Part shown: positions 3,358 to 35,767 of the stretch, piece after piece
Layout: the number at the start of each line of letters is the position of its first letter
Numbering within the stretch: position 1 is the first letter of the stretch
The notes under the pieces: generated by a model
What the model was told of the DNA's origin: nothing
The model's input: only the letters and a program-made list of their open reading frames with translations
Database searches by the model: none
Sequence record: NC_000929.1
DNA: 36,717 nt
Direction: 5' to 3' (one strand)
Source: Escherichia phage Mu
Position numbers and translations under genes: made by a program

Positions 3358-4296
3358 ATGAATATTTCCGATATTCGCGCAGGACTGCGCACGCTTGTAG
3401 AAAATGAAGAAACCACCTTTAAACAAATTGCTCTTGAGAGCGGGCTTTCTACCGGAACTATCAGTAGTTTTATCAATGATAAGTACAACGGGGATAACGA
3501 GCGTGTTTCACAAATGCTGCAACGCTGGCTGGAAAAATATCATGCAGTGGCAGAACTACCTGAACCGCCCCGCTTTGTGGAAACGCAGACGGTAAAACAA
3601 ATCTGGACAAGTATGCGTTTTGCCAGCCTGACTGAAAGTATTGCTGTTGTATGTGGCAATCCTGGTGTGGGCAAAACCGAAGCGGCCCGTGAATATCGCC
3701 GCACCAATAACAATGTCTGGATGATCACCATTACGCCATCCTGTGCCAGCGTTCTGGAATGTCTTACTGAACTGGCGTTTGAGCTGGGAATGAATGACGC
3801 ACCACGCCGTAAAGGGCCGCTCTCCCGCGCCCTGCGACGTCGCCTTGAAGGTACACAGGGGCTGGTTATCATCGACGAAGCTGATCATCTTGGTGCCGAA
3901 GTTCTGGAAGAACTCCGCCTGTTACAGGAATCAACCCGTATTGGCCTTGTGCTGATGGGAAATCACCGGGTTTATTCAAATATGACGGGGGGTAACAGAA
4001 CGGTTGAATTTGCCCGTCTGTTTTCCCGTATTGCAAAGCGCACTGCAATTAATAAAACCAAAAAAGCCGATGTAAAAGCTATTGCGGATGCCTGGCAGAT
4101 TAACGGCGAAAAAGAACTGGAGTTATTACAGCAGATTGCGCAGAAACCAGGTGCGCTTCGCATTCTGAATCATTCACTTCGCCTTGCAGCCATGACGGCT
4201 CACGGTAAAGGTGAGCGTGTTAACGAAGATTATCTGCGTCAGGCTTTCCGTGAATTAGACCTGGACGTTGATATTTCAACGCTGCTGCGTAATTAA
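3358..4296 (+). CDS. B: MuB, ATP-dependent target DNA activator (312 aa)
   Basis: 312-aa ORF with a Walker A motif (GNPGVGKTEA) and Walker B-like IIDEADHL; follows A as in Mu. Confidence 0.95.
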   Translation: MNISDIRAGLRTLVENEETTFKQIALESGLSTGTISSFINDKYNGDNERVSQMLQRWLEKYHAVAELPEPPRFVETQTVKQIWTSMRFASLTESIAVVCGNPGVGKTEAAREYRRTNNNVWMITITPSCASVLECLTELAFELGMNDAPRRKGPLSRALRRRLEGTQGLVIIDEADHLGAEVLEELRLLQESTRIGLVLMGNHRVYSNMTGGNRTVEFARLFSRIAKRTAINKTKKADVKAIADAWQINGEKELELLQQIAQKPGALRILNHSLRLAAMTAHGKGERVNEDYLRQAFRELDLDVDISTLLRN

Positions 4297-9247: not shown

Positions 9248-9466
9248 ATGGGTAAAGGCTGGAATGCATCCTTTCATCTTGGCAGACGTGAGCGGCTGCG
9301 TCAGGAGGTTTTGCACCGTGTCGCCGGTGGGCCACGTCCTGCGCCCCGCGACTATACCGGTCATGATGGCACCCACGGCAGTTATTACATGAAAGGCTGG
9401 CAGTCAGTTGATATGCCGGAAATTCTTCATCATTGCCTGCTTTACAGGGAGAAACATTATGTCTGA
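9248..9466 (+). CDS. Middle-operon hypothetical protein (72 aa)
   Basis: ORF with GGGGAAAA upstream of the ATG; first ORF after the early terminator. Confidence 0.55.
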   Translation: MGKGWNASFHLGRRERLRQEVLHRVAGGPRPAPRDYTGHDGTHGSYYMKGWQSVDMPEILHHCLLYREKHYV

Positions 9467-9821
9467 GCGTTCTGCTCGTCAGTGGCCTGATTTTTTATCG
9501 GTGGTGTTACTGGCGCTGTTATTGTGGATAAGTCTGTTTTGTGGCTGGCGCGCGCTGATGTTTTGCTGTGCCTCGGTTTTCAGTGTTGCTTTATGTGTTG
9601 CCGCTGATTGTCTGGATGCGCTGATAATGAGCTGCCGGGTGCCTGAACATTTTGCCCGGTTCGTCTGGCCTCTGACCTGGCTGGGGAGTCTGTCCGGGCT
9701 GGGATTAGCCGTGATGGCAACGTCTCAACTGAAAACGGGTCCTGAGCATGTCATCTGGGCGCTGGCCGGATTGCTGACGTTCTGGCTCTCATTTCGTTTT
9801 CGCGCTCGTCTGTTCGGGTAA
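9459..9821 (+). CDS. Middle-operon predicted membrane protein (120 aa)
   Basis: ATG at 9459 preceded by AGGGAGAAA; the product has several hydrophobic stretches (VVLLALLLWISLF, GLGLAVMA, WALAGLLTFWL). Confidence 0.6.
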   Translation: MSERSARQWPDFLSVVLLALLLWISLFCGWRALMFCCASVFSVALCVAADCLDALIMSCRVPEHFARFVWPLTWLGSLSGLGLAVMATSQLKTGPEHVIWALAGLLTFWLSFRFRARLFG

Positions 9822-9962: not shown

Positions 9963-10385
9963 ATGCAGCATGATTTATTTGAACACGATCCGGCAATTCG
10001 CCAGTTAATCGGACATATTGATAACATCCCGGCCCCGGAACTGGAATCACGCTGGCCCCGTTCGGTGGTTGATCTGATTGATGTTCTGGAAAACGAACTG
10101 AAACGCCAGAACGTCAGCAATCCCCGTGAACTTGCCCGTAAACAGGCCGTTGCCCTGTCCTGTTTTCTGGGTGGACGGCAGTTTTACATCCCCTGCGGCG
10201 ATACGATCCTGACCGCGTTACGCGACGATTTGCTTTACTGCCAGTTTAATGGTCGTAACATGGAAGAACTGCGTCGCCAGTACCGCCTGTCCCAGCCGCA
10301 GATCTACCAGATTATTGCCCGCCAGAGAAAGCTGCATACACGACGTCATCAGCCTGATCTGTTCTCACCTGAAACCCCAAAATAA
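9963..10385 (+). CDS. C: C, late transcription activator (140 aa)
   Basis: 140-aa ORF with GGGGGAAAA upstream; paralog of Mor; position before the lysis and morphogenesis genes. Confidence 0.9.
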   Translation: MQHDLFEHDPAIRQLIGHIDNIPAPELESRWPRSVVDLIDVLENELKRQNVSNPRELARKQAVALSCFLGGRQFYIPCGDTILTALRDDLLYCQFNGRNMEELRRQYRLSQPQIYQIIARQRKLHTRRHQPDLFSPETPK

Positions 10386-10406
10386 CCGGCATCCTGCCGG
10401 TTATTT
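10384..10406 (+). terminator. Probable terminator of the middle transcript
   Basis: Stem AACCGGC / GCCGGTT with loop ATCCT overlapping the C stop codon, followed by ATTT; the T-tail is weaker than at the early terminator. Confidence 0.55.
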
Positions 10407-10476
10407 CCTGTCACCATAATCCCGCACCTGCCACCTGATTTTTTAGACTGCCATCAGAGAATTTTTTCAGGGAAGC
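10407..10476 (+). promoter_or_regulatory. Probable C-dependent late promoter Plys
   Basis: Intergenic region upstream of lys containing ATAATCCCGCACCTG (10416-10430). The 9-mer CCCGCACCT recurs at a similar distance upstream of gene I. Confidence 0.45.
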
Positions 10477-10995
10477 ATGATGGCGGGGATACCAAAAAAA
10501 CTGAAAGCCGCACTGCTGGCTGTAACGATTGCCGGTGGCGGAGTGGGTGGTTATCAGGAAATGACCCGTCAGTCTCTGATCCACCTGGAAAATATCGCTT
10601 ATATGCCTTACCGCGATATTGCCGGTGTGCTTACGGTCTGTGTGGGACATACCGGGCCGGATATCGAAATGCGCCGTTACAGCCATGCGGAGTGTATGGC
10701 TCTCCTCGACAGTGATTTAAAACCGGTTTATGCGGCAATCGATCGTCTTGTCAGGGTGCCGCTGACGCCATATCAGAAAACGGCGCTGGCAACGTTTATT
10801 TTCAACACCGGTGTTACCGCATTCAGTAAATCAACGCTGCTGAAAAAACTCAATGCCGGTGATTACGCCGGAGCGCGTGACCAGATGGCCCGCTGGGTGT
10901 TTGCCGCAGGCCATAAATGGAAAGGACTGATGAACCGTCGCGAAGTGGAAATGGCAATCTGGAATATCAGGGGGGCGGATGACCTTCGCCAGTAA
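10477..10995 (+). CDS. lys: Endolysin with N-terminal signal-anchor-release (SAR) domain, lysozyme-like (172 aa)
   Basis: N-terminal weakly hydrophobic, Gly/Ala-rich segment (LKAALLAVTIAGGGVGGY) followed by a lysozyme-like body; recognised as Mu Lys. Confidence 0.88.
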   Translation: MMAGIPKKLKAALLAVTIAGGGVGGYQEMTRQSLIHLENIAYMPYRDIAGVLTVCVGHTGPDIEMRRYSHAECMALLDSDLKPVYAAIDRLVRVPLTPYQKTALATFIFNTGVTAFSKSTLLKKLNAGDYAGARDQMARWVFAAGHKWKGLMNRREVEMAIWNIRGADDLRQ

Positions 10996-16092: not shown

Positions 16093-17392
16093 TCTGGCGT
16101 ATGCCGCGCGCCTCCCGCCAAAGGAGGCTGTCGCGTATTTCCGCGCCAAAGGCTACAACATCACCTGGAACTGGTACGAACAACTGGCAGACGCGCACGC
16201 CCGCGCCTTTACCGTTGCCAAAGCCACCCGGATGGATGTCCTGACCACAATCCGTGAGGAAGTGGAGCGGGCTGTCAGTGAAGGCATCACCCGTGAGGAA
16301 TTTACCCGCACACTGGCCCCCCGGCTGCAAAAACTCGGATGGTGGGGAAAACAAATCATCGTGGATGCAGAGGGAAACGCGAAGGAAATCGAACTGGGCA
16401 GTCCGCGTCGTCTGGCAACCATTTATAACGTCAATACCCGTACGGCGTATGGGGCAGGACGTTATGCGCAGATGATGAATACCGCCGATTTGTACCCGTA
16501 CTGGCAGTACGTTGCCGTTATGGATGGCAGAACACGCCCGGAACATGCGCGGCTGCACAATATGGTTTTCCAGTATGACGACATTTTCTGGCAGACGCAT
16601 TACCCGCCCAATGGCTGGAACTGCCGCTGTCGCGTCCGGGCGCTGTCTGCGGCCCGCATGAAAGAACTGGGGCTACAGGTCAGTTATGGTGCGTCATTCA
16701 TGAATACCCGCGAAGTGGATGCCGGTACGGATGAAAGCACCGGAGAGATTTTCCGCACATCGTCAACCACGTTTGACAACGGTCGGGTAAAAATGACGCC
16801 AGATGTGGGCTGGTCATATAACCCCGGTTCGGCGGCATTTGGTACGGATCAGGCACTGATTCGAAAACTGGTGGAAGTTCGTGACGCGCAGCTGCGTGAG
16901 CAGGTTGTTCAGACGCTGAATAACAGCCGGGAGCGTCAGCTTGCTTTTTCCCTCTGGCTTAAACGCCTGGCAGGATCACGTCAGACCGGTCATGAAATCC
17001 GGGCGCTGGGGTTTATGACGGGATCCGTGGCTGAAGCCGTATATCAGCGCACCGGGAATATGCCAGCCCGTCTGCTTGTAATGAACGGGAAAAGTCTGGC
17101 GACCACTGCTGATGCCGCCCTGAAACCGGAGGATTTACAGCGTCTGCCGTCGCTGATGGCAAAACCACAGGCGGTATTGTGGGACAGGGAGAACCACCAG
17201 TTGCTGTATGTTGTGGCAACCCGTGACGGCACGGCCCGGATTGTGGTCAGAACATCACAGACAGTCGGCAGGCAGAATGACCGGGCGGATGTGCTGGTCA
17301 GTATCAGCCGCGTATCTGCACAGTCGCTTGAAGCCGCGATTGCTGACGGGATGATTGACGTACTGGAGGGGCATGTGGAGGTGAATAAGTGA
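16073..17392 (+). CDS. F: Head morphogenesis / virion protein F (439 aa)
   Basis: ATG at 16073 overlaps the portal 3' end by 20 nt; the ORF-track start at 16037 is a GTG. Confidence 0.82.
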   Translation: MPQQTIDLAYAARLPPKEAVAYFRAKGYNITWNWYEQLADAHARAFTVAKATRMDVLTTIREEVERAVSEGITREEFTRTLAPRLQKLGWWGKQIIVDAEGNAKEIELGSPRRLATIYNVNTRTAYGAGRYAQMMNTADLYPYWQYVAVMDGRTRPEHARLHNMVFQYDDIFWQTHYPPNGWNCRCRVRALSAARMKELGLQVSYGASFMNTREVDAGTDESTGEIFRTSSTTFDNGRVKMTPDVGWSYNPGSAAFGTDQALIRKLVEVRDAQLREQVVQTLNNSRERQLAFSLWLKRLAGSRQTGHEIRALGFMTGSVAEAVYQRTGNMPARLLVMNGKSLATTADAALKPEDLQRLPSLMAKPQAVLWDRENHQLLYVVATRDGTARIVVRTSQTVGRQNDRADVLVSISRVSAQSLEAAIADGMIDVLEGHVEVNK

Positions 17393-17859: not shown

Positions 17860-18055
17860 ACAGAATCAGGCATAAAATCAGCCGCACAGATTTTTTAAAA
17901 CGCGCCACGGGATTTTTAAACCGGTATTTAACGGTGTATGAATCCCGTTTTATCTTCCTTTCACTTTCTTTCTCCAGTACTCAAATAGCATAACCCCAGA
18001 TTTTCCCGCACCTCCCGCAAACTGACTGCTCACAAACCATGATGAGCAGCAGGAC
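17860..18055 (+). promoter_or_regulatory. G-I intergenic region: probable late promoter P_I and the central strong gyrase site
   Basis: 196-bp non-coding gap at the middle of the genome. Contains ATAACCCC (17990-17997) and CCCGCACCT (18005-18013), the same 9-mer as upstream of lys. The gyrase-site assignment is from recalled Mu biology (central site near 18 kb), not from sequence. Confidence 0.5.
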
Positions 18056-19141
18056 ATGAAAAAACACGCGATTGGCATTGCCGCACTGAATGCGCTGTCC
18101 ATTGACGATGACGGCTGGTGCCAGCTATTGCCTGCCGGTCATTTCAGTGCCCGTGATGGTCGTCCGTTTGATGTGACAGGCGGTCAGGGGTGGTTCATCG
18201 ACGGTGAGATTGCCGGGCGTCTGGTTGAAGGCGTTCGCGCGCTCAACCAGGACGTGCTGATTGATTACGAGCATAACCAGCTACGTAAGGACAAAGGATT
18301 ACCCCCGGAACAACTCGTCGCGGCTGGCTGGTTTAACGCCGATGAAATGCAGTGGCGTGAAGGTGAAGGGTTATTTATCCACCCACGCTGGACGGCGGCG
18401 GCCCAGCAGCGCATCGATGACGGCGAATTTGGTTATCTCTCTGCGGTTTTTCCGTATGACACCGCCACCGGTGCGGTGCTGCAAATCCGCCTTGCTGCGC
18501 TGACCAATGACCCCGGTGCCACCGGCATGAAAAAGCTGACCGCACTGGCGGCAGACCTTCCCGACATCCTTCAACAGGAGAACAAACCCATGAATGAAAC
18601 GCTGCGCAAGCTGCTTGCGCGTCTTGGGGTGACGGTCCCCGAAAATGCAGACATCACCGATGAACAGGCAACAGCGGCACTGACCGCGCTGGACACGCTG
18701 GAAATTAATGCCGGGAAAGTGGCGGCGTTGTCTGCCGAACTGGAAAAGGCACAGAAAGCCGCCGTTGACCTGACGAAATACGTCCCGGTGGAAAGCTACA
18801 ACGCCCTGCGTGATGAACTGGCACAGGCGACTGCACAAAGCGCCACAGCCAGCCTGAGCGCCGTTCTGGACAAGGCGGAACAGGAAGGCCGCATTTTCAA
18901 AAGCGAACGCACTTACCTGGAACAGCTTGGCGGTCAGATTGGCGTGGCGGCACTGTCGGCACAGCTTGAGAAAAAACAGCCCATCGCTGCGTTATCTGCC
19001 ATGCAGACCACCACAGCGAAAATTCCGTCGCAGGAAAAAACGGCGGTGGCGGTGCTGTCTGCTGATGAACAGGCAGCAGTGAAGGCGCTCGGCATTACAG
19101 AGGCTGAGTATCTGAAAATGAAACAGGAACAAGAAAAATGA
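18056..19141 (+). CDS. I: Head protease / scaffold protein I (361 aa)
   Basis: 361-aa ORF whose C-terminal half is Ala/Gln/Leu/Glu-rich and helical, as expected for a scaffold; immediately upstream of the major capsid gene. Confidence 0.85.
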   Translation: MKKHAIGIAALNALSIDDDGWCQLLPAGHFSARDGRPFDVTGGQGWFIDGEIAGRLVEGVRALNQDVLIDYEHNQLRKDKGLPPEQLVAAGWFNADEMQWREGEGLFIHPRWTAAAQQRIDDGEFGYLSAVFPYDTATGAVLQIRLAALTNDPGATGMKKLTALAADLPDILQQENKPMNETLRKLLARLGVTVPENADITDEQATAALTALDTLEINAGKVAALSAELEKAQKAAVDLTKYVPVESYNALRDELAQATAQSATASLSAVLDKAEQEGRIFKSERTYLEQLGGQIGVAALSAQLEKKQPIAALSAMQTTTAKIPSQEKTAVAVLSADEQAAVKALGITEAEYLKMKQEQEK

Positions 19142-24130: not shown

Positions 24131-26203
24131 ATGACCGGGAAACGCTTAAAGGCGTCTGTCATTATTGATCTTAATGGCAATCTTTCCCGGCGTTCCCGCC
24201 AGTATTCGAACCAGATAAACGCCCTGTCCCGTAGCGGGCAAAGTTCCCTTCGTGCCCTGCGTATGGAGGTTGTGCGCGTTTCTGGTGCCATTGACAGAAT
24301 GGGTTCACTGTCAACCCGTACATTCCGAATGCTGTCAGCCGGGGCGCTGGGTATCGCTGGCGTGGGTTACACCGCCAATAAACTGTTTATTGGTGCAGCC
24401 GCCCAGCGTGAGCAGCAGATCATCGCCATGAACTCGCTGTATCACGGCGATAAGGTCAGAGCGCAGGCCATGATGGCCTGGGCGAAGCAGAACGCGAAGG
24501 ACACCACGTGGGGGCTGAGTGGTGTTCTGGATGAGATCCGTTCGTCGAAAGGCTTCGGCATGACGGATGAACAGACGAAACAGTTCATCACCATGTTGCA
24601 GGATCAGGGGGCCATGCACGGCTGGGATTTACCCACTGCACAGGGTGCCTCACTGCAACTGAAACAGATGTTTGCCCGCCAGCAAATCACAGCGGCGGAT
24701 GCCAACCTGCTGACCGGTTACGGTATCAACGTTTATCAGGCGCTGGCGGATGCAACGGGAACGGACGTTAAAAAAATCCGTGATCTGGGTACAAAGGGCA
24801 AGCTGGGCATGAAATCCATTCTGACGGTATTCAGAACGCTGTCAGAACAGTCAAAAGGTGCACAGGCCAGTGCGATGAACTCCTGGGACGGGATGTTCGC
24901 CCAGATGGAAGCCAACCTGCTTGAATTTCGCATAAAGGTGGCAAACAGCGGCCCCTTTGAAGAAATCAAGAACGAGATGCGCCGGGTGCTTAACTGGCAC
25001 GACATGGCGGATAAATCCGGGGAACTTGACGCACTGGCAGAAAACATTGGTCAGAAATTTCTGACCACGTTCAGAACGGTAAAAATCTCGGCGCAGGAAT
25101 TATGGCGCTGGCTGAAACCGGGTAAAGATGCGCTGGCATGGGTTGACCAGAATATTGTCAGCCTGAAAAAACTGGCTGCTGTTCTGGTGTCTGTCTGGCT
25201 TGCCAATAAAGCCCTGAGAGCAGGCTGGGCCGTGGCAAAACCCTCATGGCAGGTTGCCAGTTATCCGTTTAAAACCGGGCGTCGTATGTGGCGCTGGATG
25301 CGAAACCGCAAACGTGGGCAGGCAGGTCTGCCGGTCCCGGATGCCATGACGTCTGAGACGCTGTTGCAGGGTATCGGCATTCAGCGTGTGTTTGTCATCA
25401 ACTGGCCCCGTGGATTTGGTGACTACGGGAGTGGCGGCGGTCGTCGTGTACGGAGCGGCGGAAGAATGGCCCCGCTGTTACCCCGCCAGCCGTTATTGCT
25501 GTCCGGGCCACAGCCGCTGGCATTACCTGCACCACGCCCTGTACTGGCATTACCCCCACCCGGCGTACCGGTAACGGCACGGCCTGCACCATTACCTTTA
25601 CCCGGTAAATCCGGTCTTCTGAGCAGGCTTGCAGGCAGTGCTGCCGGGCAACTGGTTACGGGAACGGTCGGAAAGCTGGCTGATGCCGGGCGTGCCGTTG
25701 GCGGGTGGTTTTCCGGTATCGGAAACAAACTTGCAGGCAGTGCGATCGGTCGGGTTGTGACAAAAGGTGCCGGGGCGCTGGGCTGGATGGGGAAAGGTGC
25801 CGGTCGTGCGTTGTCACGTCTGGGGGGCCCGGTAATGGGGGCACTCCAGCTTGCCCCCGTCCTGATGGATGAGCAGGCGTCAACCCATGAAAAAGCAGGC
25901 GCAATTGGCAGTACAGCCGGTGCATGGCTCGGCGGTGCCGTTGGCAGCCTTGCCGGACCGCTGGGTACGGTTGCTGGTGCCACGCTGGGCAGTGTCGCCG
26001 GGGAGTATCTGGGCGGTTTTGTAACCGACCTGTATCAGAAATGGACGGCCACGGATAAGGAACCGCAGGAACAAAAAGTCAATGCGGAAGCCTCGCTGCG
26101 CGTCGAACTCGGCGAGGGGTTACGTCTGACCAGTTCCCGCGTCACCGAGGATGGTATGGGGCTGAATATTTACGCGGGCGATAACTACATTACGGGCTGG
26201 TAA
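24131..26203 (+). CDS. N: Tail tape measure protein N (690 aa)
   Basis: Large ORF after the chaperone; Ala/Gly-rich with a Pro-rich tract and Gly-rich C-terminal segments. Confidence 0.88.
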
Positions 26204-26207
26204 GACC

Positions 26208-27695
26208 ATGTTTGAAGATGCTTTAAATGCCGTTAATGCTGTCCGGGATAAAACCGGTGGAGGCAGGAAAACAACCGGCAAAGGCACGTTCCGTAACGTG
26301 CCGTTTCTCGTCATCGAGGAGCAAAAACAGGCTGGCGGACGTCGCCTGGTTAAACGCGAGTACCCGTTACGTGATACCGGCGGCGTCAATGACCTGGGGA
26401 AAAAGCTTCGCTCCCGTACATTCAGCGCCTGCATTCTGAACAGCAACGCAGAAACAGCCAGAGATGAAGCGGGTGCGCTGATGGATGCTCTTGATGCTCC
26501 GGGTAGCGGTGAGCTGGTACATCCTGATTTCGGCACTGTGGACGTCATGGTGGATTCATGGGAATGCCGCACTAAAGCGGATGAACTGAATTATTACGCG
26601 TTCACCGTTACCGTTTATCCGTCGTTGCAGGATACTGCCCCGGACGCAGAGACAGACACCAGTGCAGCCGTACCGGCACAGGCCGTTGCTGTAACCGGTT
26701 CTCTGGGAGATACGCTGTCCTCTGTCTGGCAAACCGTAAAAGATGGCACTGCGGCGGCAACCGCCGTGATGGAAGCTGTAACCGGTGTCATCGATGATAT
26801 CAGTGATGCGGTGGACAATCTGGGGGTTACGCAGACTGTCAGCGGTCTGATGGGATCGCTTTCTGCGATGAAAGGCTCTGTGACCAGCCTGATTAACCAG
26901 CCTGCCATGCTGGCCTCCTCGCTGATGGGGGCGCTGTCCGGCGTTTCATCGTTATGCGATACCCGGACAGCATTTTCCACATGGAACCGTCTGGCGCAGC
27001 GATTCGAACGTCGCCATGCCGCCACCGCAGGCAGACAGGGGACAATCACAACCTCGTACAACAGTCCGGTTGCAGAAAAAAATATTGCCACACTGAACTA
27101 CGTCATGCTGGCAGCGGCGCAGACATACCGGGCAGAAGCTGCCAGCCAGGCACTGACTGCGGCACTGGATTTCAGTCGCCGGATGGATAATGCCGCCCGT
27201 GCACCTGTACTGGATGCCCCGTCCACCACAACCGGCACAGCCAGCGGGGCCAGCAGCACATCTGCTACCGTCACACAGGGACAGTTACAGTTAACTGCCA
27301 TAACCCCGGACGGCGGCTTTTCACAGGTATCCTTTTCAGACAGTGGTACAGCCACGCCCCCGGTATTTGAAAGTGTGTCCGATATCGAAAAAACCACTGC
27401 CATGCTGGGGGCGGCGCTGGATAGCGTCATTCTGACGGCATCTGAGCAGGGTTTTTCGACAGACAGTGTTCAGCTTACGCAACTGCGTCTGCTGGTTGTT
27501 GCCGACCTGGAAAAACGCGGGCTGCAACTGGCGGGTAGTGAATCACACCACCTGCCAGAAACGCTCCCGGCAATGGTTGCACTGTACCGGTTCACCGGAA
27601 ACAGCCGGAACTGGCAACGGCTGGCCCGCAGGAACGGTATCAGCAACCCGTTATTTGTTCCCGGTGGTGTCAGTATTGAGGTGATTAATGAGTAA
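26208..27695 (+). CDS. P: Tail/baseplate protein P (495 aa)
   Basis: ORF immediately after the tape measure gene; the Mu-order letter assignment is from memory. Confidence 0.8.
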
Positions 27696-28827
27696 TACCG
27701 TCACACTGCGAGCGGATGGCAGGCTGTTTACCGGCTGGACGTCAGTCTCTGTCACCCGCTCGATTGAATCCGTAGCCGGATATTTTGAGCTGGGGGTGAA
27801 CGTGCCACCGGGCACGGATTTATCCGGGCTGGCTCCGGGGAAGAAGTTCACGCTGGAAATCGGGGGGCAGATTGTCTGCACCGGTTATATCGATTCACGG
27901 CGACGCCAGATGACCGCTGACAGTATGAAAATCACTGTCGCCGGACGTGACAAAACGGCTGACCTGATTGACTGTGCTGCCGTTTACAGTGGCGGACAGT
28001 GGAAAAACCGCACACTGGAGCAGATTGCGCGTGACCTGTGCGCTCCTTATGGCGTTACCGTTCGCTGGGAGCTTTCCGATAAGGAAAGTTCGGCAGCTTT
28101 TCCCGGCTTCACGCTGGACCATTCAGAAACCGTTTATGAGGCGCTGGTGCGTGCCTCCCGCGCACGCGGTGTACTGATGACCAGCAATGCCGCCGGAGAG
28201 CTGGTATTCAGCCGGGCTGCCAGCACAGCCACTGATGAGCTGGTTCTCGGAGAAAATCTGCTGACACTGGATTTTGAGGAAGACTTCCGCGACCGGTTCA
28301 GCGAATACACCGTCAAGGGGTATGCCCGCGCAAATGGTGCTGAGGGTGATGATATTGATGCGAAAAGTATCGTATCCCGGAAAGGGACCGCCACTGACAG
28401 TGATGTGACCCGTTACAGACCGATGATCATCATTGCTGACAGCAAGATTACGGCGAAGGATGCACAGGCCCGCGCCCTGCGTGAGCAACGCCGCAGACTG
28501 GCAAAATCCATCACCTTTGAGGCAGAAATTGACGGATGGACTCGCAAGGACGGGCAACTCTGGATGCCGAACCTGCTGGTCACTATTGATGCCTCGAAAT
28601 ATGCCATCAAAACCACGGAATTACTGGTCAGCAAAGTCACCCTGATACTGAATGACCAGGACGGGCTGAAAACCCGCGTCAGCCTTGCACCACGCGAAGG
28701 CTTTCTGGTGCCGGTTGAAAGCGACCGTAAAAACAGGAAAGGCGGCGACAGTAACGGCGGTATTGATGCGCTGGTTGAAGATTATTATCGCAGACACCCG
28801 GAGAAAACGCCGCCGTGGAAAGAGTAA
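27688..28827 (+). CDS. Q: Baseplate hub protein Q (379 aa)
   Basis: Overlaps the end of P; position within the baseplate gene block. Confidence 0.78.
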
Positions 28828-35673: not shown

Positions 35674-35767
35674 ATCGATCGGTAATACAGATCGATTATG
35701 CCCCAATAACCACACTCAACCCATGATGTTTTTTAAGATAGTGGCGAATTGATGCAAAGGAGGTGAG
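35659..35767 (+). promoter_or_regulatory. mom operon control region: three GATC (Dam) sites and the C-dependent promoter Pmom
   Basis: GATC at 35659-35662, 35677-35680 and 35690-35693, followed by TTATGCCCCAATAACCACACTCAACCC and the com RBS AAAGGAGGTGAG. The regulatory roles are from established Mu biology. Confidence 0.7.

Follow-up and report, generated by a model that had tools for sequence, protein, structure and literature searches.

Does a short sequence found upstream of both lys and gene I of Escherichia phage Mu belong to the site that is recognized by C, the activator of the late promoters? An earlier note, made from the whole stretch of Mu DNA analyzed here (NC_000929.1, 36,717 nucleotides, termed the window), reported a 9-mer, CCCGCACCT, in both regions and a related element, TTCCCGCGTCACC, in what was taken to be the region upstream of P, and regarded the shared element as probably part of the C recognition site.

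The four Mu late promoters contain -10 hexamers and lack typical -35 hexamers (Jiang and Howe, 2008, PMC2582627), and the C dependence of transcription from these promoters is taken here from the literature (PMC4461284, PMC2582627). C binds a 16-bp imperfect dyad with its centre at -43.5 (PMC2582627), for which the consensus TTAT-N5-6-ATAA has been given (PMC12867686). DNase I protection by C at the lys and mom promoters, Plys and Pmom, spans about -55 to -30, and the publications examined describe no footprint for the I promoter. Single-base substitutions, made in large number at Plys, have defined -52 to -34 and the -10 region as required; both the footprint and the mutational limits are used second-hand, as summarized by Jiang and Howe (2008, PMC2582627). 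The bases just 3' of the dyad also count for activation (PMC2582627). At lys, I and P, C has been reported to act after RNA polymerase binding (PMC4461284). In a 2025 cryo-EM preprint that used a Pmom scaffold, a C tetramer is placed upstream of a non-optimal -35 and contacts region 4 of sigma-70.

Identity of the locus

The 301 bases around 10407-10476 are 100% identical to GenBank records of phage Mu and 97% identical to D108, and the gene order in the D108 annotation is the same as in the Mu window. Genes were assigned from Pfam domains, the D108 annotation and the list of open reading frames (ORFs). C occupies 9963-10385 (Mor family), lys 10477-10995 with its first ATG at 10477 (Phage_lysozyme), and I 18056-19141 (Mu-like_Pro). 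Further downstream are the tape-measure ORF at 24131-26203, taken from the ORF list, N at 26208-27695 (DNA_circ_N and D108 annotation) and P at 27688-28827 (GpP/Gp44 baseplate hub domains).

The stretch 10407-10476 is the known C-dependent lys promoter Plys of phage Mu, and the second copy of the shared element sits in the Mu I late promoter, PI. That both copies fall within C-activated late promoters, as had been expected, is confirmed by the published lys, I and P promoter oligos, which are 92-mers with 20 nt 3' of the mapped start site (PMC4461284, Table 1). The phage parts of these oligos, 86 nt each, map to 10391-10476 (lys), 17965-18050 (I) and 27275-27360 (P) in one register, which places the start sites, to within 1 nt, near 10457, 18031 and 27341. 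Coding constraint on the shared element was considered and rejected, as both copies are intergenic relative to the annotated genes.

Occurrence of the shared element and its chance level

The 9-mer is present exactly at 10421-10429 and 18005-18013, with no other exact match in the window, and its reported distances of 56 nt to the first lys ATG (10477) and 51 nt to the I start codon (18056) are correct. Identity between the two regions runs one base further 5', which yields a 10-mer, TCCCGCACCT, at 10420-10429 and 18004-18013. The same 10-bp match is already marked in the legend of Fig 1B of Swapna et al. (2015, PMC4461284); the observation is real and already published.

An exact match of at least 10 bases between two given 76-nt segments has a probability of 0.009 when the segments are drawn at random from Mu and 0.006 when the promoters are shuffled, and over the six pairs of late promoters the probability of a 10-mer match rises to about 0.04-0.05. 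The lys/I match is mildly unusual, only marginally beyond chance and not compelling. With one mismatch allowed, the 9-mer is not above chance in the window (11 found against 9.3 expected from shuffles). The core TCCCGCA occurs in three copies in Plys and PI, one of them in Plys at 10420-10426. The other two, at 18004-18010 and 18013-18019 in the PI spacer, are direct repeats spaced 9 bp apart, the second of which extends into the -10 hexamer CAAACT. In shuffled promoters, the presence of any 7-mer at least three times has P = 0.027, and TCCCGCA is found 12 times in the whole window against 6.9 expected; the tests of TCCCGCA, and of the heptamer CCCNCAC discussed below, are post hoc, the motifs having been picked after the data had been viewed, whereas the 9-mer test was defined beforehand and is negative.

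Architecture of the lys promoter

All promoter elements described here and below are on the plus strand. The Plys C operator is the 16-bp imperfect dyad TTCCTGTCACCATAAT at 10405-10420, whose promoter-proximal half-site is the ATAA at 10416-10419. It was placed from the published centre at -43.5 and the required region from -52 to -34, with the start site at 10456/10457 taken from the oligo. The upstream half of the dyad is degenerate at both Plys and PI, which fits the published description of an imperfect dyad. Downstream of the operator, a T6 tract (10438-10443) is followed by the -10 hexamer TAGACT (10444-10449), 24 nt from ATAA.

The Plys copy of the 10-mer TCCCGCACCT (10420-10429) adjoins the C operator and fills the -35 slot. 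Only its first 3-4 bases lie within the dyad and the yCCC flank, and only TCCC falls on conserved columns. When the published limits are mapped onto the window, the C footprint (-55 to -30) covers 6-7 bases of the element, roughly TCCCGCA, and the required region (-52 to -34; figures summarized in PMC2582627) covers only its first 2-3 bases.

The upstream edge of the C footprint is overlapped by a terminator hairpin with a 12-bp stem (10380-10406), which ends the middle (C) transcript. Its RNA fold has an energy of -16.1 kcal/mol (z = -6.7), the inverted repeat lies at 10380-10391 and 10395-10406, and a rho-independent terminator is annotated in D108 at the place equivalent to 10380-10406. This terminator was missed by the terminator scan and is seen with the RNA fold and the repeat finder.

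Two further repeats were noticed in Plys. CTGCCACCTGA (10428-10438) and CTGCCATCAGA (10448-10458) form a direct repeat with 9 of 11 positions identical, 20 bp apart, that flanks the T6 tract and the -10 hexamer. CACCTG occurs twice, at 10425-10430 and 10432-10437.

The I and mom promoters

At PI, the C operator ACTCAAATAGCATAAC (17979-17994), with ATAA at 17990-17993, keeps the register seen at Plys with respect to both the -10 hexamer and the published start. The -10 hexamer is CAAACT (18018-18023), with a start at about 18030/18031 and the I start codon at 18056. The PI copy of the 10-mer TCCCGCACCT (18004-18013) is found within the spacer, displaced 10 bp downstream relative to the Plys copy.

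The I leader has two other features. A 7-bp inverted repeat, CTGCTCA / TGAGCAG (18026-18032 and 18043-18049), spans the start site, and a 6-codon mini-ORF, ATGATGAGCAGCAGGACATGA (18039-18059), has a stop codon that overlaps the I start codon in an ATGA arrangement.

Pmom (35696-35739) is composed of the operator TTATGCCCCAATAA (35696-35709), ACCACA, a T6 tract and the -10 hexamer TAAGAT (35734-35739). The ACCACA has been proposed as a -35 element with 19-bp spacing (PMC2582627). In place of the shared element the mom region carries ATAACCACAC (35706-35715), and the element is not identical at all four promoters, as had been pointed out. Among the four late promoters, the full consensus TTAT-N5-6-ATAA is exact only at Pmom.

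The window as a whole contains eight matches to TTAT-N5-6-ATAA against 0.57 expected from shuffles, at 3470, 4463, 4526, 8152, 9519, 31687, 32409 and 35696. Only the last of these, at Pmom, is a known C site, and the others do not have the yCMC flank and -10 hexamer. These seven extra matches may reflect locally AT-rich DNA or unrecognized sites of the Mor/C type.

A common register for the four late promoters

The four late promoters all consist of ATAA, exactly 24 nt, and then a -10-like hexamer. The respective positions of ATAA and the -10 hexamer are 10416 and 10444 at Plys (TAGACT), 17990 and 18018 at PI (CAAACT), 27300 and 27328 at the P promoter, PP (TATCCT), and 35706 and 35734 at Pmom (TAAGAT). 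ATAA is invariant in these four promoters. The pattern ATAAYCM-N21-YANNNT has exactly these four matches on both strands of the window, with 0.45 expected; having been written after the sites were seen, it shows specificity and not discovery. The common late-promoter signature is (C)ATAA, a short yC(C/A)C flank, and a -10 hexamer 24 nt after ATAA.

In this register the 10-mer occupies about -37 to -28 at Plys and about -27 to -18 at PI. Measured from the half-site, the -10 hexamer or the start site, the 10-mer is shifted by 10 bp, about one helical turn, between the two promoters, and for this reason it is not a recognition element for C common to them. It is also found neither in PP (27275-27360) nor in Pmom, both of which are C-activated. 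The statement that both copies of the 9-mer are preceded by ATAA(T/C)CC is true, but it conceals this difference in register: at Plys the ATAATCC (10416-10422) overlaps the 9-mer, and at PI the ATAACCC (17990-17996) stops 8 nt short of it. When compared with the published C sites, the ATAA(T/C)CC proves to be the promoter-proximal half of the C operator TTAT-N5-6-ATAA together with its conserved flank, whereas the 9-mer is outside the dyad, lying 3' of it at Plys and 10 bp further 3' at PI, and has no dyad partner.

A register in which the PI 10-mer is aligned with the Plys copy was also considered. It would need GCTCAC (18028-18033) as the -10 hexamer and a start at ~18040, contradicting the published start sites, and it was rejected.

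The consensus promoter scan detected no sigma-70 -35/-10 pair at Plys or PI, as expected because these promoters are activator-dependent. A weight matrix of 46 columns, derived from Plys, PI and Pmom, was tried for blind prediction of PP and ranked the true PP only 36th of ~73,000 positions. Because the non-conserved spacer columns had overfitted the matrix, it was replaced by the block pattern together with the published oligo.

What was found here for the -10 hexamers, the lack of -35 hexamers, the ATAA half-site and the register of the start sites agrees throughout with the published descriptions and oligos of the Mu late-promoter system. There is no sequence difference from the published promoters, and only the earlier note's reading of the C site and of the place of PP differs. 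The Mor-dependent promoter Pm (PMC4390567) also has a 16-bp dyad at -43.5 in place of a -35 hexamer. Its activator belongs to the same family (Pfam Mor), and it shares with the late promoters the class of architecture in which an activator dyad abuts the -35 slot. Pm differs from them in operator sequence and activator specificity, and has no part in the 10-mer finding.

Position of the P promoter

The related element TTCCCGCGTCACC is indeed present at 26134-26146 on the plus strand, but it is not upstream of P. It is located within the tape-measure ORF, in its 3' end and upstream of N. The supposed P start was that of the ORF starting at 26208, which is N by its DNA_circ_N domain and the D108 annotation; P starts at 27688. 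The block-pattern scan finds no arrangement of ATAA, 24 nt and a -10 hexamer at 26134-26146, and the best weight-matrix score in 26080-26200 is -24.6, against 49-56 at the matrix's own sites. The TTCCCGCGTCACC at 26134-26146 is no late promoter.

The true PP spans 27289-27333 and is composed of an operator with TTAACTGCCATAA, ATAA at 27300-27303, a 24-nt spacer and the -10 hexamer TATCCT at 27328-27333, with a start at about 27340/27341. The sequence at the published location reads TTAACTGCCATAACCCCGGAC...TATCCT. PP is contained within the coding sequence of N, and P starts about 350 nt further downstream (27688). In relatives with 67-72% identity in P (L057-L060), the PP operator, the 24-nt spacing and the -10 hexamer are kept inside N, and from this conservation it follows that the bases at 27275-27345 double as coding sequence and promoter.

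Variation among close relatives

A 181-nt region around PI was compared among seven distinct sequences. Three of its eight variable columns fall inside the 10-mer (18004, 18010 and 18013), and the other five are spread over the remaining 171 columns. D108 and L017 both have T>C at 18004, L017 also has A>C at 18010, and one E. coli prophage has T>A at 18013. This clustering of variation in the 10-mer has a hypergeometric P of 0.006, or 0.037 without L017, which was noticed because of its change. In the same alignment, the PI C box CATAACCCCAGATTT and the -10 hexamer CAAACT are invariant. At Plys, 12 of 141 columns are variable, one of them in the 10-mer (C>T at 10427 in Mu_3F6), and the operator and -10 hexamer are again invariant. 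The variation within the 10-mer at both promoters therefore gives no hint that the 10-mer, taken as a unit, is under purifying selection.

The PI region was found in 41 of 5,426 E. coli genomes, all with at least 95% identity, which added little depth. Sharing of the 10-mer is limited to the close Mu/D108 clade, in which C is at least 98% identical.

Late promoters of distant relatives

Scans of IMG/VR and GTDB with C and P retrieved Mu relatives whose C is 54-67% identical, including prophages of Erwinia tracheiphila and Kluyvera. A scan of genome contigs with the C alignment gave only five loci, and most of the lineage diversity comes from IMG/VR. The regions upstream of lys, I and P in these relatives have a half-site ending in AA (ATAA, GGAA, GTAA or AGAA), the flank y-C-(C/A)-C and a total of 24 nt to the -10 hexamer. 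When 15 promoters from eight lineages are aligned on the -10 hexamer, the positions without variation are the AA, two C's in the flank and, within the -10 hexamer, A2 and T6; elsewhere the spacer holds next to no information.

The 10-mer is in neither promoter of any relative with a C 54-67% identical. The 9-mer is not enriched in the spacers of the relatives, with 2 matches at up to two mismatches against 1.3-1.8 expected (P = 0.39-0.55). The heptamer CCCNCAC, chosen post hoc, recurs in the spacers of lineages D and E.

Several other features were observed in these promoters. In relatives with a C 62-67% identical (L023-L025, L028-L036), Plys and PI share an identical 19-20-bp box, TCAGATACCGGAATC(C/A)CC, which contains the near-palindrome GATACCGGAATC and has GGAA, not ATAA, as its half-site; examples are found in L023 at about 9440-9470 and about 17150-17180. 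These boxes are far less degenerate than those of Mu, a difference suggestive of co-evolution between C and the specificity of its operator. Near the 5' end of the lys homologue, the Erwinia tracheiphila prophage and one IMG/VR contig have ~8 tandem copies of CCCCAAAAG (PKS repeats), at about 10375-10450 in L024 and about 10540-10615 in L028, and the other relatives do not have them. A T-tract is present just 5' of the -10 hexamer in most of the lys promoters, those of four of six lineages, and all lys promoters have a good -10 hexamer (TAnnCT). The I promoters have G+C-rich DNA before poorer -10 hexamers (CAAACT, AAAAAT, CACACT and GAAAAT). The T-tract and good -10 hexamer of lys versus the G+C-rich DNA and poorer -10 hexamer of I looks like a promoter-specific signature that spans lineages.

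Role of the shared element

The Mu late-promoter system is known, and the observation that drew attention to this locus is partly right while its interpretation is largely wrong. The reading preferred here, with a probability of roughly three in four, is that the 10-mer is non-positional and has no sequence-specific role as a unit, and that the real shared signal is the C half-site with its flank and the -10 hexamer. Plys and PI are sigma-70 promoters that possess a usable -10 hexamer but no hexamer at -35, and by the published work they fire only once C binds the imperfect dyad (TTAT-N5-6-ATAA) centered near -43.5. At Plys the 10-mer starts right after ATAA and takes up the -35 slot, and the PI copy stands one helical turn downstream, in the spacer. 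Only the TCCC of the Plys copy coincides with the conserved flank relevant to activation, and the remaining bases most likely represent fortuitous or historical identity within C-rich spacer DNA. The coordinates, the offset, the relatives, the natural variation and the misplacement of PP were established here, and C binding, the footprints and the mutational map come from the literature; judged from sequence, the 10-mer is most likely without function.

The proposal that CCCGCACCT is part of the sequence recognized by C at late promoters draws on the presence of both 9-mer copies in C-dependent promoters and on the published Plys footprint (about -55 to -30), which takes in the first 6-7 bases of the element. 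The report that bases just downstream of the dyad matter (PMC2582627) also leaves room for a contribution by the first few bases at Plys. The register of the two copies is against it, as they are 10 bp apart relative to ATAA, the -10 hexamer and the start site, and C activates PP and Pmom, from which the element is absent. The 9-mer is outside the dyad TTAT-N5-6-ATAA, the mutationally required region stops at -34 (PMC2582627), and the published summary implies that substitutions at -33 to -28 of Plys leave C binding and activation unchanged. The 9-mer is moreover unconserved in relatives with a homologous C and varies in D108, Mu_3F6 and prophages. A common C recognition role for the 9-mer is, on this evidence, very unlikely. 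Another possibility is that TCCCGCA or TCCCGCACCT acts as a functional module of the spacer whose position can move by a helical turn, and which would tune a step after recruitment (open-complex competence or promoter escape) or bind a host or phage factor. The 10-bp offset of about one helical turn would keep the module on the same DNA face in Plys and PI, and at lys, I and P the action of C reportedly follows the binding of RNA polymerase (PMC4461284). The nominal P of the exact 10-mer is ~0.007, three copies of TCCCGCA are present in the two promoters, with those of PI in tandem, and CCCNCAC, a post hoc choice, recurs in the spacers of lineages D and E. These enrichment statistics are, however, marginal and chosen post hoc, and neither the position nor the sequence of the module is conserved in relatives. 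Among natural variants, no part of PI varies more than its copy of the 10-mer, PP responds to C without the 10-mer, Pmom likewise has none, and the Mu late-promoter literature examined describes no factor or phenotype for it. Such a module is therefore regarded as unlikely.

The identity could also be a functionless relic of exchange between the two promoters, by short-patch gene conversion or duplication, in the recent Mu lineage. The confinement of the 10-mer to the close Mu/D108 clade (C at least 98% identical), its decay in some members of this clade and the unrelated spacers of more distant lineages are consistent with such an event. Ten bases are nevertheless very short for a conversion tract, the flanks have no extended similarity in the register of the 10-mer, and these data do not separate exchange from chance; an exchange is regarded as very unlikely.

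Implications for Mu late transcription

Late transcription of Mu is a textbook activator system, with published C operators, footprints, mutational maps and cryo-EM complexes. The present results correct its annotation: the shared 9-mer should not be marked as determining C binding. The signature that the late promoters do have in common is (C)ATAA-yCMC followed, after 24 nt counted from ATAA, by a -10 hexamer, and the P promoter is to be placed inside gene N, near 27.3 kb, instead of ahead of the ORF whose start is at 26208. It is considered highly improbable that TCCCGCA(CCT) is a real spacer element, movable by a helical turn, that modulates the post-recruitment step of C at lys and I or is bound by a factor. 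If the 10-mer were functional, a small detail of the spacer would be added to a known mechanism, and such a spacer element would help to explain the differences in strength and mechanism among the late promoters.
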